A stretch of 32,000 nucleotides of DNA from Burkholderiaceae bacterium (GTDB lineage: Bacteria > Pseudomonadota > Gammaproteobacteria > Burkholderiales > Burkholderiaceae), in contig OZ248347.1 in the NCBI GenBank assembly GCA_965234555.1, forward strand, positions 1,523,270 to 1,555,269, written 5' to 3'. This document shows positions 7,003 to 27,087 of this stretch, piece by piece. How positions within the stretch are numbered: position 1 is the first letter of the stretch; each line of letters opens with the position of its first letter. The notes below the pieces were generated by a model. That model saw only the letters and a list, made by a program, of their open reading frames with translations. It was not told where the DNA came from and did no database searches. Made by a program: the position numbers and the translations under genes.

Positions 7003-7085
7003 GGGTACAGCTTAGCACCATCAGAATAACTCTGCAGATGAGGCATATCAGCCAAAAATTGGCAATTTGCTACAATTCACAGTTC

Positions 7086-7124
7086 GGCGAATTAGCTCAG
7101 CTGGTTAGAGCGACGGAATCATAA
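7086..7124 (+). pseudogene. tRNA-Met(CAU) 5' half (positions 1-38), left att-type remnant
   Basis: 39/39 identity to 27011-27049 of the intact tRNA; identity stops at the end of the anticodon loop (..CATAA|). Confidence 0.9.
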
Positions 7125-7313
7125 GCTCGAAGTTTCTGAAAAATCCTCAATCGTTTCAAAGACATAACGAAACCACAAATGTTGGTGTCCGCACTTTGTG
7201 CTGAACACTTGACTACACACAGCTTGGAAGCCTTATGGCTAAAGGCTGGTGGGTTAGGCACACGGAGTCCACGAGAAAATGTGCGGTGATTGTGTGTGAA
7301 GAATCATTGATTG

Positions 7314-7514
7314 CTATAGTTTGACGTGTCGTTTAAAACGACATTTTTCTACTATTTTTTCAAACTCTACTGCCTCTTCAAACTGTTTGCGTAGTATCTC
7401 TTTGTCTTTGATGCGTTGAACTACTTCACGACCTGTCAGTACCGATTTATCGTTCAGAAGTTCAGATAAGGTCTTTTTGGGTGGTCTGATTTTCTTCTGC
7501 AATTTTTCACTCAT
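7314..7514 (-). CDS. hypothetical small basic protein (66 aa)
   Basis: ORF track; its last 9 codons (..CRFKRHVKL) are encoded across PAL-1. Confidence 0.4.
   Translation of the reverse strand: MSEKLQKKIRPPKKTLSELLNDKSVLTGREVVQRIKDKEILRKQFEEAVEFEKIVEKCRFKRHVKL
7327..7343. repeat. PAL-1: TGTCGTTTAAAACGACA (perfect, centre A)
   Basis: Read directly; one of 12 island-restricted copies. Confidence 0.95.
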
Positions 7515-7827
7515 ACATCTTCACACCTCAACAAATCCTTTCATCTATTTAATATTCAAGGTAGTAATAAATTTAATAAACCTATTAAACTTATGGTTAT
7601 TTTTTGACCAATAACAGTGTACCCTTGAGTTGTAAATATTACAGAACATTAGTCAACTTTTATATGACAGAAGAATCGAATTCTCAAAAATTAACTTTAG
7701 ATTTCTCTGGGATTTTTGTAATCTTTATTTTTGGAGGATTGTTTCTTGCTACATTGATAGCAGGGATATATATATTTCTGTTCCTGTTAGTCTATTTTTT
7801 TTCATTATTTACAAAACTCTAAGTAAG

Positions 7828-7992
7828 TCATACATCGTCACACCACCACCAATCCTTCTCATCTCGTTCATATTGAAGGTCAGGGTCGGTTGGTCGTTTC
7901 TTTAATTCCTGTTGAGTAAGCGAGTGATGCTCTTCATCCTGTAACTTACGTGAACGATATTGGGGTTTACCAAGGATTTCCACATCTGACAT
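7828..7992 (-). CDS. possible small ORF (54 aa, MSDVEILGKPQYRSRK...WWWCDDV)
   Basis: Translated by hand; below the ORF-track size cut-off; no strong RBS seen. Confidence 0.25.
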   Translation of the reverse strand: MSDVEILGKPQYRSRKLQDEEHHSLTQQELKKRPTDPDLQYERDEKDWWWCDDV

Positions 7993-8218
7993 ACACACTA
8001 GATTAGCACTTTTGACTAGGTTCAGAAAGTGTCAGGAATGGGTATTGATGGAATAACGGTTGGAGAGATTAAAAATGACACTATTTTTACTATACCCCTT
8101 AGTTCTTAACCAGCAGGGCCTATTAACAAACTTCAAACGCCTAAAACCCCCTGATTTTGAATCAAATGACGTATTTTTAACCTATGGTCAAAATTCACCT
8201 AGGGGTGAGAAAAAGTAG

Positions 8219-8434
8219 TTAAGGCTTGATTTTTTGTTGACTGAGTTTTTGCTGCTGTAAAACCAATTTGTGTTGCTTTTGAAAGGCACGCTCGCGTTTG
8301 AGAGCTTGTCTAGCAAGTTCAGCATTGCGCTTTAGATTAGCAATTCGTGCCTGTGCTGGTGTGAGTGGCCCCTTGGGTTTAATGGGTTTGAATTCATCAA
8401 AGCGCATGATTTTATTTATACCCTCAAGTTCCAC
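8219..8434 (-). CDS. hypothetical basic coiled-coil-like protein (about 60-71 aa)
   Basis: ORF track; the start is uncertain, with an alternative internal MRFDEF start. Confidence 0.4.
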   Translation of the reverse strand: MELEGINKIMRFDEFKPIKPKGPLTPAQARIANLKRNAELARQALKRERAFQKQHKLVLQQQKLSQQKIKP

Positions 8435-8439
8435 GGTTT

Positions 8440-8660
8440 AAATCATGTCGCATTCGGCTCTAGGCCAGCTGGCTCGCCTCTGCGATGTGGGCTTCAGCCC
8501 CCAACTCATTTCTATTCCCGCCAGCTGGCGAGAAATTCGTTGACGCCGTTACCCCTAAAGCGCACCAGCTGGTGCGGAGTCAACGGCTTGTGCTTCGCTG
8601 GTAGGGGTGATAGCTATCACCCCTCTTTGGGACTACCTTCGGTGCGCCCCATATACAAAT
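8440..8660. other. palindrome-dense non-coding region (candidate oriT, ori, or structured RNA)
   Basis: Perfect palindromes GCCAGCTGGC (8464-8473), CGCCAGCTGGCG (8519-8530), CGCACCAGCTGGTGCG (8561-8576) and AGGGGTGATAGCTATCACCCCT (8603-8624). GCGCACC (8560-8566) is complementary to GGTGCGC (8641-8647). Confidence 0.5.
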
Positions 8661-8662
8661 TA

Positions 8663-8679
8663 TGTCTTTTAAAACGACA
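8663..8679. repeat. PAL-2: TGTCTTTTAAAACGACA (1 mismatch)
   Basis: Read directly; abuts the stop codon of the 8680..9117 CDS. Confidence 0.85.
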
Positions 8680-9117
8680 CTACTTTCTAAAGCCAGCTCG
8701 TACTGCACCACTTGCCTGCTCAATTTGACCGTCGAGCTCACCAGCCTCTACAGCCCCTTTGATAATTTCCAGTGCTTTGATGAGCTCTTCGGGACTATTA
8801 ACCTCAACCGCTGATTTGCCTTTGACAAATTCAATGGTTTTAGCGCCGTATTTGACGTTTAGACAAACCTTGCCATCTTGCGCCACATACCACCAAGGTC
8901 GTACCCGCTTATTAATCTCCACGCTCTTGCGATTGCCCTCAAGGTCTTTGATAGTCTTAAACTTTTTGACAGTGAATATGCCACCTTCTTGCTGGGCTTT
9001 AGCAAACTGAATCTGCTCCCAGACTTTGGTTGCTAGCTTATTACGCCTGTGTAATACGGGCGGCATCGCAGTGGGTTTTTTGCTATTGGTTAATTTCAAG
9101 CTGTTTAATGCACTCAT
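8680..9117 (-). CDS. conserved island-associated hypothetical protein (145 aa, MSALNSLKLT...)
   Basis: ORF track 8680..9198, start moved to the ATG at 9115-9117 behind a strong AGGAGG RBS. I vaguely recall homologues in proteobacterial islands (possibly DUF6641); unverified. Confidence 0.6.
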   Translation of the reverse strand: MSALNSLKLTNSKKPTAMPPVLHRRNKLATKVWEQIQFAKAQQEGGIFTVKKFKTIKDLEGNRKSVEINKRVRPWWYVAQDGKVCLNVKYGAKTIEFVKGKSAVEVNSPEELIKALEIIKGAVEAGELDGQIEQASGAVRAGFRK

Positions 9118-9837
9118 ATTTCCTCCTATTAGTGAATGAGTACATACACAGTAGTTTCGGTCTTGCATATTGGGCAACCAGTTTTGCCAATCTGCCACAG
9201 AACCTAATAAATTTCGCCAGAATTCCCCTTCTTTTATTAGATCTCGCTAAATAAACAGGACAGCAGAGCAATCTGTATGCCATGTACCACTACTGAAATG
9301 AGCAGCGATACTCAATGTTTTATCGCCCTAAACCTAGTCAAGCGTGTTCGTAGGGATGGAAATTCTGAAGCAGTAGCAGAGACTTAGATTCACTACCCGC
9401 GAGGATGCCGTTGGCCTAGCTAGCCAGCATGAATTAAGTATATGAATAAGCTCAAAGATCGTAAGACTCAGTCTTACAGGATCACGAGAAAGCCCTGCTC
9501 ACACAGCAACTTTCAAACAAGACAGCGGTAGCCACTTCATGCTGTTGTCTATGTTGCGTTTTATAGCCGCATGTAAAAGGAGACCGCAAAACCGCCCTTG
9601 CCCATTTGGGTTGTGCCTGAAGTGGTGTAGTCAAGAACTCAGCGAAAGTCTATTTCGAAAGTCTTCTCTATCACTGAGCCTATTGCTTAAGGCTCAGTGT
9701 AGGTTGAATCTAGCGAAAATCAATCAAACTACTATCAAAAGAAGAAAGGGGTGATGAGCGACAAGCGAAATCACTGGTGAACGTAGTTCGCCATTGAATA
9801 TTTGTGTAATATATTGTTATAAATTTTTGGAGGATAT

Positions 9838-10212
9838 ATGGCTACAAAAAAACCAGCACCGACAAAGAAAACAGCTAAAGAAAAATTACTTGAAGAACAT
9901 ACTAGGGATTTAGATAGGCGTATGTGGAATATTCAAGATGAAATGATCGAGATGGGCAACAATATCGTTTCAGTATGGCTATCTGATGCAGATAGCCAAA
10001 ATATTTTTGAAGAATCAGTTGATTGGATATTAAGTTCCGAAGCCCAAAAAATGTTTGAATCCCAATCAGGAGTAATGGCGATTGAGTCTGTTAAATGTGC
10101 AATCTATCAATTTGAAAGACATCGTGAAGATAATTGGGACGAGGAAGATAATGAAGAGGAAACTAATACCTCGAAACTGTATGACGATGTGCGTGAATTC
10201 TTTAATGTTTAG
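9838..10212 (+). CDS. acidic hypothetical protein (124 aa, D/E-rich C-terminus)
   Basis: ORF track; GGAGG RBS 6 nt upstream; AT-rich codon usage. Confidence 0.55.
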   Translation: MATKKPAPTKKTAKEKLLEEHTRDLDRRMWNIQDEMIEMGNNIVSVWLSDADSQNIFEESVDWILSSEAQKMFESQSGVMAIESVKCAIYQFERHREDNWDEEDNEEETNTSKLYDDVREFFNV

Positions 10213-10372
10213 CTGTAAATACGAAGTAAGACTCTTATATCTCCCTTCCATACGTTTTTAAAATACTTTGTGGAATATCGTGGCAAAAATGCCACAAAAA
10301 ACCTAATAGAACTGCGCTTCTATTAGGTTTTATAGCTAAGTCATTGAATTTACAGAGGTCTTAAATCTGCCA

Positions 10373-10387
10373 TTTTCGGTTGCCCAA
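10373..10387 (+). promoter_or_regulatory. shared upstream motif TTTTCGGTTGCCCAA, 58 nt before the short recombinase start
   Basis: The same motif, in the same orientation relative to the gene, lies upstream of the integrase (15787-15801) and the GNAT gene (26895-26909). Confidence 0.5.
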
Positions 10388-10445
10388 ACCGAACCTAAGA
10401 AAACATACTGTAGTTGCTTATTTATTACTTTAAGGAGCTACTTTT

Positions 10446-11012
10446 ATGTCACAAGCAAAGGTTTTGAATTCTGTAGAACTGCGTCGCGTATTGGATTACG
10501 TGGCAACACGTAAACACAGCGCACGTAATCGCGCTATGCTGCTTTTAACCCACTTCGCGGGTATGCGGGTAGCGGAGGTGGCTAGTTTGCGCTTATACGA
10601 CGTTTTAAACGACAGCGGCACAATTAAAGAAGAAGTGCGCTTGAAACCCGATCAAACCAAAGGCAAATATGCCCGCACTGTCTACCTGAATTTACGTATA
10701 CAAAAGGAATTGGCGCAGTACATCAAATGTATTAATACCAGTGATCTCCAAAAGCCACTGTTCTATACCCAAAAGCGAGCGAGTTTTTCCCCAAATACCC
10801 TAGCGCAATACTTTTTATTCCTCTATCGCAATGTGGGCTTAGAAGGAGCCAGTAGTCATAGTGGGCGCAGAAGCTTTCTCACGCATTTGGCTAATAAAGG
10901 CACAGCCATTCACATCCTAAAGAGCTTGGCAGGTCATCGCAATATCAGCACCACTGCGGCCTATCTATATAGCAGCCCCGATCAACTCAAAGCGGCGGTG
11001 GAGCTGGTCTGA
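10446..11012 (+). CDS. short tyrosine recombinase (188 aa, catalytic domain only)
   Basis: Catalytic residues in order: R (FAGMRVAEV), HSGRRSF (HxxR), GHRNISTTAAYLY (H...Y). No N-terminal SAM-like or arm-binding domain. Confidence 0.85.
   Translation: MSQAKVLNSVELRRVLDYVATRKHSARNRAMLLLTHFAGMRVAEVASLRLYDVLNDSGTIKEEVRLKPDQTKGKYARTVYLNLRIQKELAQYIKCINTSDLQKPLFYTQKRASFSPNTLAQYFLFLYRNVGLEGASSHSGRRSFLTHLANKGTAIHILKSLAGHRNISTTAAYLYSSPDQLKAAVELV
10598..10614. repeat. PAL-3: CGACGTTTTAAACGACA (2 mismatches), inside the short recombinase CDS
   Basis: Read directly; encodes ..DVLND.. Confidence 0.7.
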
Positions 11013-11411
11013 TTATTTGGTCTTTTTAGACTTAGCTTTTGGTTTAGCCTTTACTTTAGCTTCAATTGCTTTGGGATTCTTACCGATATCCACAACCACT
11101 TTGCCCGTGTAATTTTCAATCACTTCGGTGTGGTTAGGATCTAAGGTCAACTCTGGAAAGTCTGTTTGAATCTGATGTCCGTACCACGTACAAAAGACTT
11201 TTTTCGTATGCTTTCCCGATTTAGAAACTTTGATATCCCGACCATTGACCACGGCAAACACACCCTCAATGGTTGCTAATCGGTATTTGGCATTTTTTAC
11301 TTGAATGACTGTGACATTACTTAATTTCTGAGTCTTCAAAGGAGTGGCATGCGAATCAGTATCTGGACATTTCTTACTATTCCACTTCTCTGCCTTTAGA
11401 TAAAAATCCAT
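11013..11411 (-). CDS. hypothetical protein with a lysine-rich C-terminal tail (132 aa)
   Basis: ORF track; GGAGG RBS; its stop abuts the convergent recombinase stop with no spacer. Confidence 0.55.
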   Translation of the reverse strand: MDFYLKAEKWNSKKCPDTDSHATPLKTQKLSNVTVIQVKNAKYRLATIEGVFAVVNGRDIKVSKSGKHTKKVFCTWYGHQIQTDFPELTLDPNHTEVIENYTGKVVVDIGKNPKAIEAKVKAKPKAKSKKTK

Positions 11412-11483
11412 ATAGCCTCCTATAACCCTTATTAACGATCATTAACTGTTGCTAATCATTATTAGGATAGCAAAGAACTTACA

Positions 11484-12281
11484 TTACTTCTTTTTGGCTC
11501 GTTTTTGGGTAGTAGTCCAGTCATGAGGGTCTGTGCAGGGAAAACGCAGCTCAGTGGCATGCGCCATGAGGTTTTGTACCTGCTTGAGAATATCGCTGGC
11601 CACATTAGCCGCTTCAATGCGCAGATCTACGGGCACATCCACACGTTTAAGTAGTCCTCTAAACAAGCTAGGGTGTAGCTCCATGTCTTTGGCAAAGTTA
11701 TATAACTTGAAATCCTTACGATCTTTTTGTTTTTCGTAAGCACGATAGACGGTTAGCCACCGTGAGATGGTCGGATAGGTCAATTTGGTTTCACGATATT
11801 GATGCACTGGGGCAGTACTATGATCCCAGCGATCTTTATTCTCGGTGTAATAGTCACTGTGCTGGCGCAAGATCTCCTCGAACTGTTCCCGCAACGCTTT
11901 GGGGTGCAGATTTAGTGGTACCTCAATTTTTAGAATGGGCGGCTTTTTACTGCTCGTTTGAGTCTGCGTCTTAATCTGTGGCTCGGTGATTTCAATGGGT
12001 TGATAGGGAACGTCTTCTGCAAAGATCTCATAGCCTCTGGTTTTCCACCACGACGCAAAATCCGTTTTACTCAGATCGCCAAATTTTTCCCATGTCTCTT
12101 CAGCTGCTCTACTTTTAAAGACGCCACTCTCGCTACTGTCTCGATACCACGGGGATGTTTGCAGCGTTTCAAACCACGCTTCGTAGAGCGTACCTTTGGC
12201 TAATTTGGCAGAGCTGTCGATGGTCTGCGGAAAAATCCGATCCTCTGCAGACAAGCCTTTTAAGAAGAATTTCACAGTCAT
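11484..12281 (-). CDS. hypothetical protein (265 aa)
   Basis: ORF track; long ORF divergent from 12406..13182; no family recognised. Confidence 0.6.
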   Translation of the reverse strand: MTVKFFLKGLSAEDRIFPQTIDSSAKLAKGTLYEAWFETLQTSPWYRDSSESGVFKSRAAEETWEKFGDLSKTDFASWWKTRGYEIFAEDVPYQPIEITEPQIKTQTQTSSKKPPILKIEVPLNLHPKALREQFEEILRQHSDYYTENKDRWDHSTAPVHQYRETKLTYPTISRWLTVYRAYEKQKDRKDFKLYNFAKDMELHPSLFRGLLKRVDVPVDLRIEAANVASDILKQVQNLMAHATELRFPCTDPHDWTTTQKRAKKK

Positions 12282-12405
12282 TTAGGTCGATCCCATCAAC
12301 GCCAAATCCCTAATTTTTTTAGTGTTTTGGCAGTTTAATGGAACTTATTCGAGGCCACTGTTTCACCCTTTTATCAACCCGCTTCGAATATATATCGGAG
12401 GTTTT

Positions 12406-13182
12406 ATGATCGTATCAGACCAAGTAGTACCTGCAGTAATTAACGTATCAACTGTCGTTTTAAACGACAACGCTACTCCCGTTGTTGGGCCAGCTAACCT
12501 CGAACTACGTTCGATGGAAGCCAAGCGCATCGATTGGGAAACTGGAGCCTTTCGCACCAGCAATCAAGCACTCTATCAAGTGTTAGCAGAGTGTCTAGCG
12601 TATAGCGGTGAGTTGCCTGTCAGCATGGCCAAGCTGCGTAATGGTGCACTAGCAACTTTTTATAAAGAGCGTGGCTATCGCTACAAAGAAGAAGCGCCGT
12701 TGGTCACTCGTGTGGTGCGTGCGGTATTTGGTGATATTAATCGCCGTCGCATTAGCACCTACTCACTGGTGCTGCGTCAAGCACAAAAAGAAAGTATTGC
12801 GTATGCCGATTTGCCAGCGTGGATTGAAGAGCGTGGCGGTATTCAAGAGATTCGTCTTAGCCGCAGCACGACCTTTGTGAGCCCTGCGCAAAAAGCCAGT
12901 GTGGGCAAGATGTACTTTGAAGGCAAAGCTGATTTAGGAACTGTTCAGTCCGAGTGGCTCTCGGTTGAAGCAGATCCCAGCTTTATCGGACAGGCCTGCG
13001 TGTTATTGGCTGAGCAACAGTCTGATGGCAGCTTTCATGTGCGAGCAGTCATTCGTAATCAAACGGCATTAAAAGCTGCCTATGCCGCCTTGTATGTCAA
13101 GCAAAAGGATGCACAGGCTAGAGCAGAAGCAGAAGTCGCTGCTGCCAACGACGCTGACGGTGCGCTTGCACAACAGGCCTAA
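12406..13182 (+). CDS. hypothetical protein (258 aa, Ala-rich C-terminus)
   Basis: ORF track 12322..13182, start moved to the ATG at 12406 behind a GGAGG RBS; followed by a hairpin. Confidence 0.6.
   Translation: MIVSDQVVPAVINVSTVVLNDNATPVVGPANLELRSMEAKRIDWETGAFRTSNQALYQVLAECLAYSGELPVSMAKLRNGALATFYKERGYRYKEEAPLVTRVVRAVFGDINRRRISTYSLVLRQAQKESIAYADLPAWIEERGGIQEIRLSRSTTFVSPAQKASVGKMYFEGKADLGTVQSEWLSVEADPSFIGQACVLLAEQQSDGSFHVRAVIRNQTALKAAYAALYVKQKDAQARAEAEVAAANDADGALAQQA
12453..12469. repeat. PAL-4: TGTCGTTTTAAACGACA (perfect), inside a CDS
   Basis: Read directly; encodes ..VVLND.. in the same reading frame as PAL-3. Confidence 0.95.
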
Positions 13183-13189
13183 GTAAGTA

Positions 13190-13218
13190 GGGGCTACTTT
13201 CGGGTAGCCCCATCTTTC
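13190..13218 (+). terminator. hairpin GGGGCTAC-loop-GTAGCCCC with a weak T tract
   Basis: Read directly, downstream of the 12406..13182 CDS. Confidence 0.4.
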
Positions 13219-13253
13219 AACCATTCACTTAATTTCACACTACGGAGAAACCC

Positions 13254-13916
13254 ATGTATGTACCTACCTCACTTAACGACATTATTTTCGGTAATCCCGA
13301 AAGTAAGCTGCGCATCTACGACATTGTCACAGGTGCCGAAACACTACCTGCAAGCGGCAAATCAGGAATCCTTCTTTACGGAACCTGGGGCACTGGTAAA
13401 ACCACGATGGCCACAATGCTACCTGACGCAATTGAGAAAGGCAGAACCGACGAAGAGTTAACCATGTCCGCAGACTTGATTCGTTGTCAACAGGGCTTTA
13501 ATGGACCACAGGTGATTGATTTCATCGCAAAAATCTTAGATAAGAACTCACTCAATGCCAGTGGTCTGCACTACATCATTATTGATGAGGTGGACTTGCT
13601 AACTAAATCAGCGCAGGAGAGCCTAAAGTCCGCAATGAATACCAGTCGTTGCATCTTCATCTTAACCACTAATTACATTGCCTATTTAGATCGTGGTTTA
13701 TTAGATCGCTGTGTCTTAGTGGAAATGAATGCGGCTGCTATTAATGATTATTTGCCGTTAGCCAAAAACTTAGTCAGCGATATGGGCGTTGTTATGAGCG
13801 ACGATGATTTATTACCTACTATTTCTGCGGCTAAAGGCTCATTGCGAAATTTGATTCATAACGTGGAAAGGCTTGCTAGACGTAGTAATCCTCCACCACC
13901 TAACATTATTTTTTAA
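13254..13916 (+). CDS. AAA+ ATPase, clamp-loader (RFC/DnaX/gp44)-like, 220 aa
   Basis: Walker A GTWGTGKTT; Walker B IIIDEVD followed by LT..AQ..L; an SRC-like DRC motif (LLDRCVLVEM). Confidence 0.75.
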   Translation: MYVPTSLNDIIFGNPESKLRIYDIVTGAETLPASGKSGILLYGTWGTGKTTMATMLPDAIEKGRTDEELTMSADLIRCQQGFNGPQVIDFIAKILDKNSLNASGLHYIIIDEVDLLTKSAQESLKSAMNTSRCIFILTTNYIAYLDRGLLDRCVLVEMNAAAINDYLPLAKNLVSDMGVVMSDDDLLPTISAAKGSLRNLIHNVERLARRSNPPPPNIIF

Positions 13917-13925
13917 GGAGGATAT

Positions 13926-20770: not shown

Positions 20771-20771
20771 T

Positions 20772-20788
20772 TGTCGTTTTAAACGACG
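20772..20788. repeat. PAL-7: TGTCGTTTTAAACGACG (1 mismatch)
   Basis: Read directly; begins 2 nt after the stop of the upstream CDS. Confidence 0.85.
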
Positions 20789-20815
20789 TTATAAATCGAG
20801 GTTATAGCTCATACT

Positions 20816-21079
20816 ATGAGCCACAATAACTTTATTCTTCCTAGAGAATCAGCTTTTTTTAAGTCGGGAGAACCCATGAGTAATGTTGAAATTCTAGGAA
20901 AATTCAAGTGCCAGCCTATTAAAGTTAGATTGCGAGATGAACTCAATCCATTTAATCAATTGAAATCCAAAACAACAGCTCTTCCCTTAACTTATACAGA
21001 TTTAGTCTATGAGCGCGATGTCACAGATCAAAATCTCACTAACTACGAAGGCTCTATGAATAAGTTAAAAACGAAATAA
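20816..21079 (+). CDS. hypothetical protein (87 aa; alternative start at 20876)
   Basis: ORF track. Confidence 0.4.
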   Translation: MSHNNFILPRESAFFKSGEPMSNVEILGKFKCQPIKVRLRDELNPFNQLKSKTTALPLTYTDLVYERDVTDQNLTNYEGSMNKLKTK

Positions 21080-21110
21080 ACAAAAGATTAATTAATTTAT
21101 CAAGGCACAC

Positions 21111-21608
21111 ATGAGAGAACTTTCACACCTTTTTACCAGAGAAACCCCAAGACAAATCATTCTTGAAGACTTCAAGATTGATCTTCCAATCACTGGCAGC
21201 TGGGGGTATGACTTTGAATCAGCCTGCGTTATTGATAAAAATGATCCGATAGTAAACCAAACTATTCCATTTAATGGTGTGAGCATTGAATATATATTTG
21301 TTGAAAAACGAATATACGAGGAGATGATTATTTTCCGCGAGGCTAATGAAAAATTCTCAGGCATTAGGTGGGATCTAGAAAAACAAGAGCTTGTCTTTCA
21401 AAATGAAAAGCCTTACGACAAGCTTACTTTTAAGGTTGTAGGCTTTGCTGATGAGGTGTGGGACGAGCTAACAAGGCGTTTTGAAGAACTCAAAAATAAA
21501 GGTCAATTAGATCTACTTCCTGAATTAGACGCCTATAGGGATTCGAAAGCCTATAGATTTACTAGAGAGTATTACTTTGATATTTCAAGCTTTTATGGTC
21601 AGCCGTGA
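21111..21608 (+). CDS. hypothetical protein (165 aa)
   Basis: ORF track. Confidence 0.5.
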   Translation: MRELSHLFTRETPRQIILEDFKIDLPITGSWGYDFESACVIDKNDPIVNQTIPFNGVSIEYIFVEKRIYEEMIIFREANEKFSGIRWDLEKQELVFQNEKPYDKLTFKVVGFADEVWDELTRRFEELKNKGQLDLLPELDAYRDSKAYRFTREYYFDISSFYGQP

Positions 21609-21635
21609 TCTGGTTTGCCCACCAAGATATGCGAC

Positions 21636-21652
21636 TGTCATTTAAAACGACA
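21636..21652. repeat. PAL-8: TGTCATTTAAAACGACA (1 mismatch, centre A)
   Basis: Read directly. Confidence 0.85.
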
Positions 21653-21684
21653 CATTCCATAACCTCACGGATGGGATATTCCCC
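21653..21684 (+). repeat. R-box copy (CATTCCATAACCTCACGGATGGGATATTCCCC)
   Basis: Near-identical to 23936-23966 and similar to 26928-26957; always immediately right of a PAL. Confidence 0.85.
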
Positions 21685-21699
21685 AGTTTGAGCTTGGCT

Positions 21700-21730
21700 G
21701 GGGCGGAATCGAACCAGGGCCGAGGATGTC
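21700..21730 (-). repeat. L-box copy; minus strand reads like a tRNA T-loop plus 3' acceptor remnant (..GGTTCGATTCCGCCCC)
   Basis: Similar to 22788-22823 and 23863-23901. Confidence 0.75.
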
Positions 21731-21869
21731 TGATCCACCCAACTAATTTACCCCTAAATCACCCACTTTGAGGAGATAGGATATGGTTGGTAGGCTTTTA
21801 GCCATCACACCCTGCTTGCATAATGAAAGGCTTGTGTTTCATATTCAATCGATGGGTTAGTGCTACCAG

Positions 21870-22691
21870 CTATTTTTTTAGATTTTGTTTTAAAAACATG
21901 GCTACTGCATCACGTGCATTTGTTGCGTCATATGTATTGTCATGACCCGTACCGCCAAGCTCAAGCGTTGTTAGCGATCCATCCATCCTTCCGTTTGAAC
22001 ATCTTGATTTTGCTTGTCCAAACCAAGGATCGATACTATATGAGATTACAAGACTCCTTACACCCTGTTCAAATCCAATACCCGTAAAACAAAAACCGCT
22101 TGATAAAACTATTCCGCGTATACCTTCTATCTGGGTTCGAGCAAGGGCCTCTGCACCTTCACTGTGTCCCATAAAAAATATGTTATCAACATCTACCCAT
22201 GATAATTTTTTAAGCTCAAGCATTGCATACGCAATCTCTTGTTCTCTATAAGGAATAGCCATTGGAAAATTATTTGTTACCGAATTAGTACGGGAGTCGC
22301 AATTTGAAATTCTTTTTGGCCTAGCAAAGCTATCTGGCAGTATCACGACAAATCCGAGATTAGCAATATATTGCCCCCATTGTTGATCATGATAAGACTG
22401 TATGCCTGCACAACCATGAAGATAGATAGCCACAGGATATTTTTGGTCTAATTTTATATTTTTGATTCTTTTTGCAAAATTACTTTCTGGAATAAAAACC
22501 ATAGCTTTATCCCAGCTATTTTCAATGCCCTTGTCCATATGAATTTTTCCTGCAGCCCTATCTTTTGCTAATTGCTCGATATACCTATCCCCATCGGCTA
22601 TAGATTCAGACCCTGGTGGCTCCTCAAGAGCATGACTACTAAATGTCAAAAATAATAGTGCTGAAAATAATAGCTTTAAGGAAAGTTTCAT
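21870..22691 (-). CDS. secreted alpha/beta hydrolase (dienelactone-hydrolase-like), 273 aa
   Basis: Signal peptide; nucleophile elbow GHSEGA. Confidence 0.7.
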   Translation of the reverse strand: MKLSLKLLFSALLFLTFSSHALEEPPGSESIADGDRYIEQLAKDRAAGKIHMDKGIENSWDKAMVFIPESNFAKRIKNIKLDQKYPVAIYLHGCAGIQSYHDQQWGQYIANLGFVVILPDSFARPKRISNCDSRTNSVTNNFPMAIPYREQEIAYAMLELKKLSWVDVDNIFFMGHSEGAEALARTQIEGIRGIVLSSGFCFTGIGFEQGVRSLVISYSIDPWFGQAKSRCSNGRMDGSLTTLELGGTGHDNTYDATNARDAVAMFLKQNLKK

Positions 22692-22787
22692 ATTTTTCTA
22701 ATATTTTTATTGAGGTTATTTAACTTTAACATTCAAATTTGATTAAGAATGAACAAATCATCTCAAGCTAGTTATGATGTTTCTTGC

Positions 22788-22823
22788 GTGGCCCGAGGCA
22801 AAATCAGCTTGGGCTGAGCATGC
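22788..22823 (-). repeat. L-box copy (diverged)
   Basis: About 30 of 36 positions match 23865-23900 by hand alignment. Confidence 0.7.
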
Positions 22824-22840
22824 TCATCGCGTGCTTATTC

Positions 22841-22857
22841 TGTCGTTTTAAACCACA
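22841..22857. repeat. PAL-9: TGTCGTTTTAAACCACA (1 mismatch)
   Basis: Read directly; followed by a degenerate R-box (..GCACAGGGATGGAACATC..). Confidence 0.85.
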
Positions 22858-23007
22858 TCTACTGGCACAGGGATGGAACATCTTTGTAGCTCCCCCCACC
22901 GCTACATGAAGCCTTGCTTTAAAGAACATTACTTAATTGCGCTCAATAAATTAACCAGGCCGCGAAAATAAGATTACGTCTAAGTAATCGTAAATGTAAA
23001 ATCTGTA

Positions 23008-23682
23008 ATGAAAATTATTACTAATTCAATATCAAATGATCTTATGCTAAAAAATTTATTTGTGATCATTGTTTCTTGTGCCTTGATAGGCTGCTCTGCA
23101 ACGATGGGGCCAAGTGGGGATCAAACTAGGCCTGGCATTATTGTATTACCCACAAGCGGCGGCGTTCATCATGAGAATTCTTATGCCTCACAACTCAGCA
23201 GAAAAGGTTTTCAGGTAGTGGTTGCTGACTACCATCAACGCGGTGGCACAGACAATATAACCTTAGCCTATGATGCTCTCCGTAAAGATCCTCGAGTTGG
23301 AAAAATTGGAATGGTTGGGTTTAGTCGTGGAGCAGTTATGGGCGCAAATCATGCTTATTTTCTCCACCAAAACAGCGATCGAAAAATTGATGCGATTGTG
23401 AGTTTTTATATTGGGCCCACAACGCCACATGCTAATACATCAATACTGCCGATATTATTTTTACAAGGTGAATTAGATAATTATGTTAAGCCAAATCAAT
23501 TGATACAGTTTTGTAACGCTTTGGATGCCAGCGGCAAGCGTTGTAAGGTAAAAGAGTTTAAAAATGTGGGGCACGCTTTTGATCAAACGAGAACCCTGCC
23601 AATTTATTCAGGCTTTAATCGCGAGGCTACTGAAGATTCCTATGATCTAACCATACAATGGCTTAATCAGTGGCTTAAATAA
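23008..23682 (+). CDS. lipoprotein alpha/beta hydrolase (dienelactone-hydrolase family), 224 aa
   Basis: Lipobox LIGC; nucleophile elbow GFSRGA; C-terminal GHAF. Confidence 0.7.
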   Translation: MKIITNSISNDLMLKNLFVIIVSCALIGCSATMGPSGDQTRPGIIVLPTSGGVHHENSYASQLSRKGFQVVVADYHQRGGTDNITLAYDALRKDPRVGKIGMVGFSRGAVMGANHAYFLHQNSDRKIDAIVSFYIGPTTPHANTSILPILFLQGELDNYVKPNQLIQFCNALDASGKRCKVKEFKNVGHAFDQTRTLPIYSGFNREATEDSYDLTIQWLNQWLK

Positions 23683-23711
23683 TTACTTTTGTTGTGCCGA
23701 CTATCAAAAAA

Positions 23712-23728
23712 TATCGTTTTAAACGACA
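23712..23728. repeat. PAL-10: TATCGTTTTAAACGACA (1 mismatch)
   Basis: Read directly. Confidence 0.85.
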
Positions 23729-23756
23729 TCGACTGACATAAGGATGAATAATTGAC

Positions 23757-23775
23757 GCGTCCTTTTAAAGGACGC
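23757..23775. repeat. variant palindrome GCGTCCTTTTAAAGGACGC (different arms, same TTTTAAA centre)
   Basis: Perfect 9-1-9 palindrome read directly, inside the gene-less PAL-10 to PAL-11 interval. Confidence 0.8.
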
Positions 23776-23862
23776 TTCATGATGGGGATATCCGGCTCTA
23801 ATGGCGTCTAAGCCTACCAAGCCCAAAAGAAAATAGCCCAACAAGTGGGCTATTGAGATTCT

Positions 23863-23901
23863 TGGTGGCCCGGGGCGGAATCAACTAGGGCTGAGGATGC
23901 C
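23863..23901 (-). repeat. L-box copy; minus strand ends ..GATTCCGCCCCGGGCCACCA (T-loop end, T-stem, 7-nt acceptor strand, A, CCA)
   Basis: The spacing is exactly that of a tRNA 3' end. The T-stem 5' strand does not pair, so this is a remnant and not a gene. Confidence 0.7.
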
Positions 23902-23918
23902 TAACTCTAACTCTAGAC

Positions 23919-23935
23919 TGTCGTTTTAAACGACA
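23919..23935. repeat. PAL-11: TGTCGTTTTAAACGACA (perfect)
   Basis: Read directly; flanked by an L-box on the left and an R-box on the right. Confidence 0.95.
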
Positions 23936-23966
23936 AATTCCATAACCTCACGGATGAGATATTCCC
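23936..23966 (+). repeat. R-box copy
   Basis: AATTCCATAACCTCACGGATGAGATATTCCC; continues into a promoter-like block homologous to 26958-27010. Confidence 0.85.
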
Positions 23967-24019
23967 ATGGTTGGGCATGGCTGGCTCTTGAGACCTTTTG
24001 ACCTTATAATTACTAGTTC

Positions 24020-24050
24020 GGCGAATTAGCTCAGCTGGTTAGAGCGACGG
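24020..24050 (+). pseudogene. tRNA-Met 5' fragment (positions 1-31) with the island-borne upstream block
   Basis: 31/31 identity to 27011-27041; the upstream ~85 nt is homologous to 26928-27010. Confidence 0.9.
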
Positions 24051-24065
24051 GATCCGACTCCGAAC

Positions 24066-24455
24066 CTACAAAAGCGGTTGAACAAACGCAAACCATCCAC
24101 CTATCATTAATAAGCTAAGGCTAATCCAATAAATTCGTTCTGAGAATTTCCGTGTTTTTAAGCAGGCATCACGCATCTTAGGATCAATCGGACATGGGGC
24201 ATTTCGATTACGCCACTGCAATATGCCGCCAATGAGCATCAAACCACTACTTAATGCAAATATCGCCTCTTTATGCTCGCTAATCCACACAATCTTTGGA
24301 AATACAGATACTAAAGAGGCGAGCGTTGCCCCCGCACCCAAACTGACCAGGAGTGCGGGGATGGCACAGCAAATGAGGGTACTCGAACTCGCAAAGAGGC
24401 TAATTAAAGAACTGATATAGCTTGTCTTTGTTTCATTCAAGCCGTCTTGACTCAT
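24066..24455 (-). CDS. MerT-like heavy-metal transport membrane protein (copy 2)
   Basis: 129 aa; same CC and C..C motifs as copy 1. Confidence 0.6.
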   Translation of the reverse strand: MSQDGLNETKTSYISSLISLFASSSTLICCAIPALLVSLGAGATLASLVSVFPKIVWISEHKEAIFALSSGLMLIGGILQWRNRNAPCPIDPKMRDACLKTRKFSERIYWISLSLLMIGGWFAFVQPLL

Positions 24456-24778
24456 TTTTTATCCTTCTGCTGAGCCCTAAACTGGGCAACTGTCTGGGAG
24501 ATCGTTTCAATCTTGACCACGTCGTAGCCTGAGTCTTTAATCTCTTGACTAATCAGCTTCTCGTTTAAGGTTTTACCTTCCTTTGCCTCAACGACCACTA
24601 CTTTATTTTTGAGATCCACAAAAACGGCTTTGGTCTCATCCATCTTTGAAATACTTTTTTCAATACCTTGGGCACAAAACGAGCAAACCATGCCATTGAC
24701 AGTGACCTTCATGCTTGCCAGTGCGGTCTGACTCAAACCCATTAATGCGATTGCGATGATTAAGTTGATCTGTTTCAT
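24452..24778 (-). CDS. periplasmic HMA-domain protein (copy 2)
   Basis: 108 aa, GMVCSFC; 6 differences from copy 1. Confidence 0.85.
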   Translation of the reverse strand: MKQINLIIAIALMGLSQTALASMKVTVNGMVCSFCAQGIEKSISKMDETKAVFVDLKNKVVVVEAKEGKTLNEKLISQEIKDSGYDVVKIETISQTVAQFRAQQKDKK

Positions 24779-24788
24779 CTTGATTCTC

Positions 24789-25439
24789 CTAATAGTTATA
24801 CATAAAGTTAAAACGCAGTTGTCCTGATAAATTGGCGCCTGCCTCTACAAAGTACCGTTTATGAATGACCCTTACCATCGGGGTGAACTCATACTGCTTA
24901 GAAACAAAGGTCATACGCCTTGCCTCAACCACGATCCAGGGCTGAGGCTCATCGTAGTCAGCCTCATAAAAGGAGGCGCCCAAACGAGCCGTAGTGATAT
25001 TGCTCGTGGCCCCCTGTGCCGCATAGACCCGGGCTGATGCCATGGAATAAAAGCGGGTAGTCTCATAATCCACCTGAATACCGGGTGACGCCATGGCTTT
25101 TGAGCCACCAAAGGTATTTCCGGTTGTAGAGCCAAGGCCGCCAATAAACCAGATATTGGCTTGAGCCTCTGGCAGATTCCAGCGCGCTACCTTGCGGGTG
25201 TAAACCGCTTCAAGATTTTGCTGTTTTGACACAGAGTTATCCGTTTGCATAGCGCTTGCTGAAATTCCAAATGCATCGTTTGCGGTAGTGGCATAGTTCA
25301 AGCCAAACTCCTGATAGGTTTTACTAAAGTCACCCATCAGCATCCAGCTGTTCTTAAACCCCATCGGTGCCGCAAATGAATTTGAGACAGCTCCCACCAC
25401 TAGCAGAAAAAAACTCGCCAGACTAATCGCTTGCTTCAT
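24789..25439 (-). CDS. putative outer-membrane beta-barrel protein (copy 2)
   Basis: 216 aa; mature part nearly identical to copy 1. Confidence 0.55.
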   Translation of the reverse strand: MKQAISLASFFLLVVGAVSNSFAAPMGFKNSWMLMGDFSKTYQEFGLNYATTANDAFGISASAMQTDNSVSKQQNLEAVYTRKVARWNLPEAQANIWFIGGLGSTTGNTFGGSKAMASPGIQVDYETTRFYSMASARVYAAQGATSNITTARLGASFYEADYDEPQPWIVVEARRMTFVSKQYEFTPMVRVIHKRYFVEAGANLSGQLRFNFMYNY

Positions 25440-25717
25440 TTGAGTTTTTCCATCACTGTGATATCAAGCGTTCCATCAACAACCTTAATCTGGAATCGAA
25501 CCCTGTCTCCAGGTCGATATTGATCCAATGGAATCTCCTTAACCACCCCAAAAGGCATGGTCATCGGGGCCATCTTGATACTGGGTATGTACTCATGCTT
25601 GAGCACAATACGGCTACGTGATTGATCAACACGCACTACTTCGCCATTAACCCATTCGGGGCTGGCATAGACATAGACCGAAAATAGACTGAGGAATACA
25701 ACAATCAATCGCTTCAT
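25436..25717 (-). CDS. CusF-like periplasmic metal-binding protein (copy 2)
   Basis: 93 aa; MAPMTMPF motif. Confidence 0.8.
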   Translation of the reverse strand: MKRLIVVFLSLFSVYVYASPEWVNGEVVRVDQSRSRIVLKHEYIPSIKMAPMTMPFGVVKEIPLDQYRPGDRVRFQIKVVDGTLDITVMEKLK

Positions 25718-25772
25718 TTAACTCTCCAAAAAAGATCAAACCCAAAATTTGGGCGGACTTATCCTAGGGGAG

Positions 25773-26138
25773 TTAAAGAATGGGTGGCTTATTAGCGACC
25801 GAGAGGTCGATACCCGTTAGTGTTTTGAGGGAGGTAGAAAAAGTTTGTGTAAATCGATCTGTTATTAGCGCAGGAACAGAATTTGGTAATAAACCAAAGG
25901 CCATGCATAAAGTACATGAGTAGCATCGATCCCCATTCACTTCAATGGCTTGGTGACTATCCATGGAATGTTGAGCTGCATCACCATTTTGGTGACAAGG
26001 ATGGGCTGCTACCGACTCCTGCATCTGGCTCACGGGGGTGACAAGCATTTTTTGCATGCCCATATCCAACACCGCCCAAGCTTGGACAGGTATTAGAGCA
26101 ATCAAGGAAACAAGCAATAATCTTTTAAACATAGACAT
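25773..26138 (-). CDS. small secreted Cys/His-rich protein (copy 2, most diverged member)
   Basis: 121 aa; HPCHQ and CYSCTLC conserved, central region differs from copy 1. Confidence 0.55.
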   Translation of the reverse strand: MSMFKRLLLVSLIALIPVQAWAVLDMGMQKMLVTPVSQMQESVAAHPCHQNGDAAQHSMDSHQAIEVNGDRCYSCTLCMAFGLLPNSVPALITDRFTQTFSTSLKTLTGIDLSVANKPPIL

Positions 26139-26215
26139 AGCTTAGCACCATCAGAATAAGTCTGCAGAGTAGCTTTGTCAGCTAAAAATCCCCAATTTGC
26201 TGCAGTCCACAATTT

Positions 26216-26249
26216 GGTGAAATAGCTCAGCTGGTTAGAGCGATGGAAT
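26216..26249 (+). pseudogene. diverged tRNA-Met-like 5' fragment (GGTGAAATAGCTCAGCTGGTTAGAGCGATGGAAT)
   Basis: 3 substitutions relative to 27011-27044 (2 in the acceptor stem, 1 in the anticodon stem); same upstream context as fragment 7086. Confidence 0.8.
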
Positions 26250-26855
26250 GGACAATCGAAAACTCAAATTAGCATCTACTGCTGGGAATTCGTCTGCCAA
26301 AATACTGTAAACACAAGTATCTCGAATACTAGCTTTGGCATCTGGGTGACGATTAATTTGATGACTTCGTAATACGCCATCTAATTTCGCCCCCAATCTC
26401 TCAATACCTCGACGACTTTGATGATTAAAGAAATGAGTACGAAATTCCACTGCAATACAATCAAATTTTGTGAATGCGTGACGTAACAATAGCAATTTAC
26501 ATTCCGTATTAATTGCTGTTCGCTGAGCCGACTGTCGATACCAAGTAGACCCTATCTCGAGTCTGCGATTATCCTGATCAATATTCATGTAAGTTGTCAT
26601 TCCAATGGGGCTCCCTTTGGCATCCAAAACACAAAATGGATTCATAGAGCCCAACTGCTGTAAGCCCAAACGCCTATCAATCTCCTTTGCCATTGCCTCA
26701 GGCGAAGGAATGCTTGTGTACCAAAGTTTCCAAAGTTCACCATCTCTAACAGCTTCACATAAACCATCATGATGCGCCATTGTTAATGGCACTAATGTGG
26801 CATGCTTACCTTGTAGGGTTACTGATTCCGAGAATTTCATAGCGGGATATGTCAA
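26235..26855 (-). CDS. GNAT-family N-acetyltransferase (RimJ/RimL-like), 206 aa
   Basis: Length and layout (..LRHAF......IAVEFRTHFFNHQSRRGIERLGAKLDGVLR..) are typical of the GNAT fold. The last ~5 codons are encoded by the tRNA remnant. Confidence 0.75.
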   Translation of the reverse strand: MTYPAMKFSESVTLQGKHATLVPLTMAHHDGLCEAVRDGELWKLWYTSIPSPEAMAKEIDRRLGLQQLGSMNPFCVLDAKGSPIGMTTYMNIDQDNRRLEIGSTWYRQSAQRTAINTECKLLLLRHAFTKFDCIAVEFRTHFFNHQSRRGIERLGAKLDGVLRSHQINRHPDAKASIRDTCVYSILADEFPAVDANLSFRLSIPSL

Positions 26856-26894
26856 TGGCTGTGAATCTTCATTCTGCCATACGGATGGAGAACT

Positions 26895-26909
26895 TTGGGT
26901 AACCGAAAA
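26895..26909 (-). promoter_or_regulatory. shared upstream motif (TTTTCGGTTACCCAA on the minus strand), 39 nt before the GNAT start
   Basis: See 10373-10387; PAL-12 follows 1 nt away. Confidence 0.45.
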
Positions 26910-26910
26910 C

Positions 26911-26927
26911 TGTCGTTTTAAACGTCA
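26911..26927. repeat. PAL-12: TGTCGTTTTAAACGTCA (1 mismatch)
   Basis: Read directly; 83 nt upstream of the intact tRNA. Confidence 0.85.
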
Positions 26928-26957
26928 CACCCACAACCTCACGGATCGGATATTCCC
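26928..26957 (+). repeat. R-box copy (CACCCACAACCTCACGGATCGGATATTCCC)
   Basis: Homologous to 21653-21684 and 23936-23966. Confidence 0.8.
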
Positions 26958-26995
26958 GTGGTTGAGCTTGGCTGGCTCTTGAGCCCTTTTGACCT

Positions 26996-27001
26996 TATAA
27001 T
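26996..27001 (+). promoter_or_regulatory. consensus -10 hexamer TATAAT, 9 nt before the tRNA 5' end (island-borne promoter candidate)
   Basis: Read directly; duplicated at 24005-24010; no convincing -35 (TGGCTC at 17-nt spacing). Confidence 0.35.
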
Positions 27002-27010
27002 ACCTAGTTC

Positions 27011-27087
27011 GGCGAATTAGCTCAGCTGGTTAGAGCGACGGAATCATAATCCGCAGGTCCGGGGTTCAAATCCCTGATTCGCCACCA
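27011..27087 (+). tRNA. tRNA-Met (anticodon CAT); could instead be tRNA-Ile2 if C34 is lysidinylated
   Basis: Hand-folded cloverleaf: acceptor GGCGAAT/ATTCGCC, D arm GCTC..GAGC, anticodon arm ACGGA-ATCATAA-TCCGC, V loop AGGTC, T arm CGGGG-TTCAAAT-CCCTG, encoded CCA; 77 nt. Confidence 0.9.

Follow-up and report, generated by a model that had tools for sequence, protein, structure and literature searches.

Elements that integrate into tRNA genes carry the 3' part of the gene almost universally, and this rule is usually explained by the keeping of the host promoter. In the accretion of cis-mobilisable elements (CIME), known from ICESt1/ICESt3 of Streptococcus thermophilus, att-bounded units without recombination genes accumulate beside an integrase-bearing element. 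The symmetric sublocation (Williams 2002, as described in PMC8371274) places the crossover in the anticodon loop, whose 7 nt lie between the arms of the stem dyad. Islander listed 159 of 3919 islands with a 5' fragment and 3760 with a 3' fragment (PMC4383910 Table 1). Elements of the pTN3/TKV4 type in Thermococcales use the 5' half of a tRNA gene as attB, and the rebuilt tRNA, parted from the promoter it had before, is expressed from DNA of the element (PMC8371274; PMC5495485).

In this study, we analysed a window of 32,000 nt (GCA_965234555.1, contig OZ248347.1, 1,523,270-1,555,269, forward strand) from a Burkholderiaceae bacterium of the genus Polynucleobacter. Its genome, G000, is one closed contig of 1.76 Mb. 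The genus survey used 140 near-complete Polynucleobacter genomes; relatives are labelled G (genomes) or L (loci), and window coordinates refer to the whole stretch. The region 4923-27049 very probably consists of four integrative units, arrayed in tandem within the anticodon loop of a tRNA-Met gene in the order M(A)-E1-M(B)-GNAT. This array is the mirror image of the usual arrangement. An earlier note on this DNA had stressed that tRNA-targeting elements normally carry the 3' part; the reversed type is indeed rare, but it was already documented (PMC4383910, PMC8371274, PMC5495485).

The tRNA-Met gene and the units upstream

The intact tRNA-Met(CAT) gene is located at 27011-27087 on the plus strand, at the right end of the island as the earlier note had placed it. 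It was the sole tRNA found by ARAGORN in the window, and Rfam agreed (tRNA, 67 bits). Its 3' part occurs once in the window genome, and it is most likely the sole elongator tRNA-Met gene, essential and single-copy. A terminator-like hairpin with a T-run (27097-27118, plus strand) follows in the chromosomal right flank. BLAST and repeat searches also confirmed three 5' remnants on the plus strand. Remnant 1 (7086-7124) is tRNA nt 1-39 at 100% identity (E 1.9e-16 in a within-genome search) and ends exactly after the anticodon loop. Remnant 2 (24020-24050) is an exact copy of nt 1-31, inside a 146-nt match of 88% that takes in the upstream block. After nt 31 it reads GATCCGAC-TCCG, compared with AATCATAA-TCCG in the intact gene, and this diverged continuation, to about 24066, therefore extends the remnant to about nt 43. 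Remnant 3 (26216-26249) is nt 1-34 of a foreign allele (GGTGAAAT...GATGGAAT). This diverged copy (26216/26223-26249) was matched at E 3e-7, and its GATGG variant matches the tRNA allele of other Polynucleobacter species (L028).

The conserved chromosomal left flank holds an SBP_bac_11 solute-binding gene (4161-4922, plus strand; Pfam PF13531, E 5e-47). Unit 1, the metal cassette M(A) (4923-7085, minus strand), has five genes by Pfam, among them HMA (5314-5640), barrel (5651-6301) and CusF (6298-6609), and includes a native-like promoter stub, TACAAT (7071-7076). There was no tRNA fragment at the SBP/M(A) junction, so one array boundary is not a clean att site. Unit 2, E1 (7125-24019), is a 17-kb island with a module common to the islands of at least 12 other genomes. 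Its class (a) left arm (GCTCGAAGTTTCTG...; 7125-7344, plus strand) ends at a PAL (7328-7344) and is 85-93% identical to the arms after 5' remnants in G090, G152 and G084; an arm resembling class (a) is also present in a Ferrovaceae-labelled MAG. Pfam assigned to E1 a DUF6641 gene (8680-9198), a small tyrosine recombinase (10446-11012), an AAA ATPase (13254-13916), an R-M pair (16020-17339 and 17484-18236) and hydrolases. E1 also holds Int-W, a tyrosine integrase of 421 aa (14473-15738, minus strand), and ends in a P block of PAL, R-box and TATAAT (23916-24019, plus strand; TATAAT at 24005-24010). Unit 3 is the metal cassette M(B) (24051-26215, minus strand). Unit 4, the GNAT cassette (26250-27010, minus strand), has an acetyltransferase gene (26235-26855; Pfam PF13302) and a P block (PAL 26911-26927, TATAAT 26996-27001). 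M(A), M(B) and GNAT are without integrase, and the units are delimited by att repeats. The points against successive integration of four units include the unclean SBP/M(A) boundary, the lack of an integrase in three of the units, the ends of the remnants ahead of M(B) (nt 31) and GNAT (nt 34), both short of nt 39, and the varying combinations in which left arms and right P blocks are paired among genomes.

The metal cassette is 2.2 kb in size, and M(A) is 83% identical over 2189 nt to 24072-26249. The earlier note had taken this cluster for the chromosomal context of the leftmost remnant. This was not borne out, as in the nearest relatives the SBP gene is immediately followed by the tRNA, and the cassette was not found at the tRNA-Met site in G011 or G152. 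Its barrel gene is present in only 23 of the 140 genomes, at varied loci. Moreover, the cassette lies between 5' halves in this window (copy B), G084 (L036 3156-5397) and G158 (L053 6006-8260). Because these flanking 5' halves recur in three genomes, we count the cluster as a unit, which brings the array to four; and since it is a cassette and not chromosomal context, the leftmost remnant is probably cassette-borne too.

The GNAT protein is 99% identical in G084, at the same position, where the preceding 5' half likewise stops at nt 34, and this identity is found between species whose flanking FrhB is 89% identical. G084 has the order P block, 5' half, M, 5' half, GNAT, P block, tRNA, which is shared with the window, and it carries one more class (a) island, precisely at the place of the window's hybrid-looking remnant 3. 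The array, or its M(B)-GNAT-tRNA part, might accordingly have been imported pre-assembled from another Polynucleobacter species by homologous recombination through the tRNA and its flanks, followed by deletions between the 5'-half repeats. Polynucleobacter island flanks have been reported as hotspots of such recombination (PMC5644125). We consider this explanation rather unlikely: it accounts for transfer but not for origin, and the anticodon-loop junctions would still need site-specific recombination somewhere. It is compatible with successive integration and may be part of it.

Empty and occupied sites across Polynucleobacter

The closest island-free relative, G011, has the SBP gene, a TACAAT promoter, the tRNA and the same downstream DNA (85% identity), in this order, and the SBP orthologue ends about 50 nt upstream of the tRNA. 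In the occupied G152, the SBP orthologue precedes a 5' remnant. Its upstream 110 nt are identical to those of G011 and are joined to tRNA nt 1-39 only; a 9-kb island follows, and the intact tRNA stands behind a PAL block. This pair reconstructs attB, attL and attR, a comparison that the earlier note had proposed. The reversed polarity described in that note stands, as the PAL/R-box block was not found upstream of the tRNA in the island-free G011, L012-L016 and L019. The native promoters of island-free relatives are TAGACA-17-TACAAT, or TACAAT behind the SBP gene, and native promoters remain beside the remnants at occupied sites. The note's central reading, that several events placed islands upstream of the tRNA and supplied its 5' half and upstream DNA, was likewise supported. 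In the window, tRNA nt 1-39 would be element-borne and nt 40-77 chromosomal.

The 5'-half type is the commonest island arrangement at tRNA-Met across Polynucleobacter. The earlier note had asked how often such elements occur; extra upstream 5' copies were found in about 21 of the 140 genomes, compared with extra 3' copies (the classical type, all downstream) in 6. On the tRNA's own contig there were 24 extra 5' copies in 17 genomes, all of them upstream and on the same strand, and in about 4 further genomes the copies were split over contigs. Allele differences were seen between T16 in the intact gene and C16 in the remnants of G096, in remnant 3 of the window and in GGTGAATT of G084, and these indicate separate origins of the 5' halves. 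Assembly artefacts were rejected as a source of the remnants because the assembly is a single contig and other genomes show this architecture too. A wider reading, in which classical 3'-carrying elements were later rearranged, or the tRNA segment was duplicated by chance or in assembly, is extremely improbable. Classical islands do occur at the same tRNA in the genus, but the 24 of 24 upstream copies, the remnant ends in or beside the anticodon loop and the native promoters kept with the remnants all speak against it, and chance alone would not be expected to yield exact matches of 31-39 nt in a 1.76-Mb genome.

On the side of the tRNA, each unit very probably ends in a promoter-like block followed by a separate copy of tRNA nt 1-39. 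We propose that a tyrosine integrase exchanges strands inside the 8-bp core. With the 5' and not the 3' part carried on attP, each integration would shift the previous promoter and 5' half upstream, leaving a dead remnant, and the promoter block and 5' half of the newcomer would become joined to the chromosomal 3' half and terminator. Int-W, the only candidate integrase in the window genome, is presumably the acting enzyme, and the integrase-less units would need moving in trans. The order of the integration events is likewise a proposal, and part of the array may already have been assembled on arrival. The resemblance to CIME accretion lies in att-bounded, integrase-less units at one site next to an integrase-bearing element. 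The window differs in that its repeats are 5' tRNA halves with promoters; mobilisation in trans may apply here.

Integrases and the anticodon-loop core

Across 13 genomes, every 5' remnant retrieved at a single island or a left end stops at nt 39, and all 3' remnants fetched (n=5) start at nt 32. These results indicate a shared core, AATCATAA, which is the anticodon loop and lies at 27042-27049 in the intact gene. Some internal array remnants stop earlier, at nt 31-37 (this window, G084, G154 and G080). As in other anticodon-loop tyrosine-integrase islands, the site has an integrase, a tRNA with a same-strand fragment, identity ending at the loop and an empty counterpart. Classical anticodon-loop islands and prophages have the same crossover site, and members of the integrase family found here use it in this way at tRNA-Met (G046, G083) and tRNA-Phe (L058). 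They carry nt 32-77 and keep the host promoter, whereas the window units carry nt 1-39 and an upstream block on the element side. The 5'-fragment islands of Islander also have a tyrosine integrase, an intact tRNA downstream and a same-strand 5' fragment upstream. They are a minority there, whereas the 5' type is the majority at the Polynucleobacter site, where islands share one 8-bp core with classical relatives and arrays reach four units, most without integrase.

Int-W is located between remnant 1 and tRNA-Met and is the only family member in G000. It has the catalytic motifs ATGMRHGTE, SFRHTYAT and ERHYSK. Its match to PF00589 (E 1.4e-4) is below the Pfam cut-off; among its more than 2000 homologues, many have precomputed PF00589 matches, and homologues adjoin att sites in relatives. 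The integrases of G096, G077 and G173 share 65% identity with it, and Int-b 40%. Int-W lies 7-8 kb from either end of E1, unlike Int-b, which abuts its own att site, and this distance speaks against the proposed integration. Both are intact open frames (421 and 403 aa) away from tRNA fragments, and the split integrase gene of the SSV type was not seen in either. The archaeal pTN3/TKV4-type elements resemble the window in their 5'-half attB and in cutting the gene off from its original promoter, but their attP is inside the integrase gene, which is split on integration, whereas the integrases here are intact and beside or far from att. The class (a) islands of G090, G152 and G084 had no integrase-family ORF, and G090 had genome-wide only a 22%-identical homologue.

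The integrase subfamily follows polarity, with Int-W and Int-b at 5'-type islands and 3'A and 3'B at 3'-type islands. Sister clades use the same 8-bp tRNA-Met core in both polarities. Outside the genus, a 48%-identical integrase is at a tRNA-Phe anticodon loop in classical polarity, with a remnant from nt 32. A 63%-identical Int-W in another MAG is accompanied by an nt 1-39 remnant and a class (a) arm. Some arms have decayed 3' halves directly behind the core (z 2.6-5.0 relative to shuffles), which suggests that any switch of polarity passed through carriers of a whole tRNA gene. We tentatively offer, as a possibility somewhat short of even, that the Polynucleobacter anticodon-loop integrase family switched tRNA half via such carriers, and that integrase-less cassettes with conserved, PAL-bounded att modules of about 360 bp then pile up in an integron-like manner, each newcomer taking over transcription of an essential tRNA.

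The PAL/R-box/TATAAT block

The full block occurs at 26907-27010 and 23916-24019, 89% alike (the match is listed to 26931-27053), in agreement with the earlier note that it precedes both the functional gene and the 24020 remnant. The same P block is upstream of the tRNA or 5' halves in G041, G090, G152 and G084. That note had also held that the island supplies the promoter of the tRNA. This agrees with the topology and with a perfect TATAAT 9 nt upstream of the intact gene, but no canonical sigma-70 -35 partner was found for it; the block is a putative active promoter of tRNA-Met.

Nine copies of the PAL core CGTTTWAAACG are present in the 1.76-Mb genome, and every one lies within 7330-26914 of the window, in the island region. 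Most 5'-type islands contain PAL (G120 and G080 do not), as against 0 of 5 examined 3'-type islands. The conserved DNA of class (a) islands stops exactly at PAL on both sides of cargo that is unrelated between genomes. Int-W is bracketed by PAL in this window and in a MAG, the segment 7330-14456 has, with respect to Int-W, the opposite orientation to that in G096, G077 and G173, and a third, truncated block copy (21633-21701, plus strand) lacks a 5' half and is fused to a reverse-complement tRNA-Phe T-arm fragment (21702-21730). These features could point to internal repeats that are not scars of integration at the tRNA but junction modules of about 360 bp (PAL, P block, tRNA 1-39, a-arm, PAL) between which a PAL recombinase swaps cargo, integron-like, with the outermost junctions alone made by the tRNA integrase. 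This is unlikely, as the M and GNAT left junctions have no PAL, and native-promoter remnants ending at nt 39 (G152, G010, G129, G120 and G095) need an anticodon-loop crossover. No PAL-acting enzyme was identified, and the small recombinase is also present in PAL-free islands. The likeness to integrons is in short, mostly promoter-less cargo units between conserved recombination modules, but the array has no IntI-type integrase and is anchored in a tRNA gene. Integron identity was rejected: with the NCBIfam integron models the small recombinase scored 39 bits for TIGR02249 against a cut-off of 265, Int-W had no match, and there was no attI/attC structure.

The genus offers a natural comparison: related integrases use one tRNA and one 8-bp core in both polarities, with the reversed type the more frequent. 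What determines polarity can be tested through the genus, and so can the cost of leaving an essential single-copy tRNA with a promoter that belongs to a mobile element. Island finders would miss or mis-delimit such arrays if they require a 3' fragment, or an integrase in each unit. In annotation, the 2.2-kb metal cluster belongs with island cargo and not with the core genome.

The tRNA-Met gene, its partial copies and the upstream block

The window contains one tRNA gene, tRNA-Met(CAT) at 27011-27087, as detected by ARAGORN and in agreement with Rfam. The earlier note had described three partial copies of this gene; repeat and BLAST searches bore them out, all on the same strand. Remnant 1 (7086-7124, +) equals tRNA nt 1-39 with zero mismatches. 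Remnant 2 (24020-24050, +) equals nt 1-31 and then reads GATCCGAC-TCCG, compared to AATCATAA-TCCG in the tRNA, and remnant 3 (26216-26249, +) is a distinct allele, GGTGAAAT...GATGGAAT. The block of about 100 nt with PAL (core CGTTTWAAACG), R-box and TATAAT (P block) was also confirmed before both the intact gene and the 24020 copy. The two blocks, starting at 26907 and 23916, were 89% alike, and a third, truncated copy was found at 21633. Across the 1.76-Mb single-contig genome the PAL core was counted nine times, always within 7330-26914 of the window, which marks the P block as island-type DNA.

An Rfam hit to the Polynucleobacter-1 RNA, the sources named for protein homologues and hits to Burkholderiales MAGs assign the genome to Polynucleobacter. 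Of its 40 tRNA genes, three carry the CAT anticodon. These were tentatively divided into initiator, Ile2 and elongator Met by E. coli sequences and TilS determinants. One gene has initiator features, another has the C4/C5 acceptor stem, presumably the TilS determinant of tRNA-Ile2, and the gene in the window has G4/A5. The 3' part of the window's tRNA-Met occurs once in the genome. Whether this is the only elongator Met or Ile2 copy had been raised before, and we found one copy, with three CAT genes for three roles. Since the three CAT genes cover three essential functions and the 3' part is unique, the window's tRNA is single-copy and essential, whichever non-initiator role it has. Outside the window, at G000:C1:648430-648505 of the same genome and about 1.5 kb from tRNA-Asn, ARAGORN reported a tRNA-like gene whose anticodon has four bases (aaaa).

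Empty and occupied sites and the layout of the array

The closest relative with matching downstream DNA (85% over 390 nt) was genome G011. Its order is the SBP gene (the solute-binding gene of the left chromosomal flank, 4161-4922 in the window), about 50 nt including TACAAT, the tRNA, and the same downstream DNA as in the window; neither the PAL block nor the metal cluster is present at this site. In G152, 110 nt of the SBP end and promoter, identical to G011, are joined to tRNA nt 1-39 only and followed by a 9-kb island, and the intact tRNA stands directly after a PAL/R-box/TATAAT block. The reconstruction of attB from an island-free relative was thus achieved, as this pair yields attB, attL and attR directly. 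In another clade, the tRNA of the island-free loci L012-L016 and L019 is preceded by TAGACA-17-TACAAT and, before that, by an ORF with the C-terminus ...FQIK. In the island-bearing genomes G010, G129, G120 and G095, the native context stays with the nt 1-39 remnant and island DNA precedes the intact gene. No island-free relative examined (G011, L012-L016, L019) has an upstream PAL block, which supports the element-borne origin proposed for it.

Neither the island-type nor the native-like upstream region gave a -35/-10 pair in a sigma-70 consensus scan. The P block carries a perfect TATAAT (26996-27001) 9 nt before the tRNA, at the same position as the native TACAAT, and no good -35. The term promoter therefore rests on TATAAT/TACAAT at a conserved distance and on topology. 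Because mobile DNA fills the 22 kb upstream of nt 39 and GNAT, the nearest gene on that side, is transcribed divergently, it follows from the topology that the element supplies the putative promoter of the tRNA. The claim that the island provides the 5' half and upstream DNA was upheld; for the promoter, topology and the TATAAT stand, and a -35 was not found.

The metal cluster beside the leftmost remnant had been regarded as chromosomal upstream context. The window has two copies of it, at 4934-7119 and 24072-26249, which share 83% identity across 2.2 kb. Copy B has 5' halves on both sides, and a metal cassette between 5' halves is also found in G084 (locus L036, 3156 and 5359) and G158 (locus L053, 6006 and 8222). 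The barrel gene of the cassette occurs in 23 of 140 genomes at varied loci, and in G011 and G152 the tRNA promoter is abutted by the SBP gene, not by the metal cluster. The flanking 5' halves, the varied occurrence and the G011/G152 site rule out the cluster as ancestral context and identify it as cargo. Therefore, the array is read after the SBP gene as metal cassette M(A) leading to remnant 1, the 17-kb island E1 (7125-24019) leading to a P block with remnant 2, metal cassette M(B) leading to remnant 3, and the GNAT cassette, whose P block leads into the chromosomal 3' half. At the SBP/M(A) junction the adjoining genes share 4 nt, and no piece of the tRNA is present; a deletion seems to have removed the chromosome's own promoter and 5' half. 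In the G084 cassette (L036, 3928-4579) the barrel gene is broken into two frames, so that this copy appears to be decaying.

Other features were observed inside E1. A Polynucleobacter-1 RNA motif (9300-9439, +; Rfam 79 bits against a cut-off of 37) lies just upstream of, and divergent from, the conserved island gene DUF6641, and may be part of the mobile element rather than of the host. A 269-aa ORF (19961-20770) without a Pfam match begins within a SAM-I/IV riboswitch (19897-19994, +; 66 bits, cut-off 41). A type II restriction-modification pair at 16020-18236 consists of a C5 cytosine methylase with an N-terminal HTH (-) and an LlaMI/MvaI-type endonuclease (+).

Polarity, the shared core and the integrases

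The frequency of both polarities was surveyed in 140 genomes of the genus with completeness of at least 95%, 115 of which have this tRNA variant. For 5'-half carriage, which the earlier note had proposed to survey for this integrase clade, the genus gave 24 extra copies of nt 1-31 in 17 genomes, on the same contig as the gene; all 24 were upstream and on the same strand, and about four further genomes have copies split over contigs. Extra copies of the 3' pattern were found in six genomes only, all downstream. G001, G092 and G195 show two apparent full tRNA copies each, on separate contigs. An apparent second full copy in G225 was a contig-end duplicate and not a whole-tRNA island.

Junctions were compared in 22 extracted loci. 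Where a 5' remnant belongs to a single island or marks a left end, it stops at nt 39 (...GACGGAATCATAA); some array-internal ones end sooner, at nt 31-37, and all five 3' remnants begin at nt 32 (AATCATAATCCGC). The 5' and 3' remnants overlap in AATCATAA, which comprises the anticodon loop and one base of the stem. An overlap region of this type is the expected one when a tyrosine recombinase acts on the stem dyad (PMC8371274).

The island integrases all fall in one protein cluster with four subfamilies, and polarity tracks the subfamily. Int-W is found in this window, G096, G077 and G173, its members being 65% identical to each other. Int-b, from eight genomes, is 40% identical to Int-W and lies about 240 nt right of the left 5' remnant. 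Subfamily 3'A (30% identical to Int-W) adjoins the intact tRNA, and 3'B (about 22% identical) adjoins the right-hand 3' remnant. NCBIfam has no curated family for any of the four, and a homologue search gave more than 2000 relatives. A small tyrosine recombinase and the DUF6641 gene are common to 5' and 3'A islands. In the window, the module at 7330-14456 (DUF6641, small recombinase, p265, p286, AAA ATPase) is bounded by PAL copies and is inverted relative to Int-W in comparison with G096, G077 and G173.

Outside the genus, a 48%-identical integrase lies beside tRNA-Phe with a classical remnant, again starting at nt 32, and a Ferrovaceae-labelled MAG has a 63%-identical Int-W where a class (a) arm, the arm being the element DNA after the core, again comes behind a tRNA-Met nt 1-39 remnant. 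Therefore, this is an anticodon-loop integrase family in which the carried tRNA half appears to have switched. Class (c) arms and the M-cassette arm in G084 retain significant similarity to tRNA nt 40-77 right after the core (2000 shuffles, z 2.6 to 5.0); the same test gave none for the arms of classes (a), (b) and GNAT. Judged from these sequences, the reversed polarity would fit ancestors with a whole tRNA gene in attP, one half of which then decayed.

Fragments of the tRNA-Phe(GAA) 3' end lie at 21702-21730 and 23856-23900 (reverse complement) beside PAL/P blocks in E1, and the genomic tRNA-Phe gene has a further, diverged fragment about 870 nt downstream, at G000:C1:1742426-1742457. As the anticodon loop of tRNA-Phe is the target of out-of-genus integrase relatives, the two tRNA sites may exchange cargo.

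Islands without an integrase and the place among known systems

Class (a) islands share a left arm (GCTCGAAGTTTCTG..., about 205 nt) that runs up to a PAL, and on the right a stretch from a PAL through the P block; in the window this arm lies at 7125-7344. PAL there marks the exact boundary between conserved att arms and unrelated cargo. Most 5'-type islands have it, with G120 and G080 as exceptions, and the five 3'-type islands examined all lack it (loci L029-L056). The class (a) islands of G090, G152 and G084 encode no integrase; a different integrase was considered, and none is encoded there. The whole G090 genome has no close integrase homologue. Among the cargo proteins of these islands are a CopA-type ATPase, GGDEF and HD-GYP proteins, and a CzcA-type pump. 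From genome to genome, left arms are paired with different right blocks, as expected if composite excision from tandem arrays came first and internal deletion later. Between the window and G084, identity is 99% for the GNAT protein and 89% for the flanking FrhB; this difference indicates that DNA recently passed from one species to another, perhaps as a part of the array that was already assembled.

The usual rule in bacteria, in the part of PMC8371274 that cites Williams 2002, is that the 3' part is carried and the host promoter kept, "with very few exceptions". In Islander, 159 islands have a 5' tDNA fragment and 3760 a 3' one (PMC4383910), and pTN3-like elements of archaea, which use the 5' half, detach the tRNA from its promoter (PMC8371274, PMC5495485). 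With these exceptions already on record, the reversed polarity in the window thus belongs to a known but rare kind. In the literature searched on Polynucleobacter islands, we found no mention of tRNA integration and no account of 5'-half arrays. What stands out is the frequency of this arrangement in the genus, the core shared with classical relatives, and a four-unit array at a single-copy essential tRNA.
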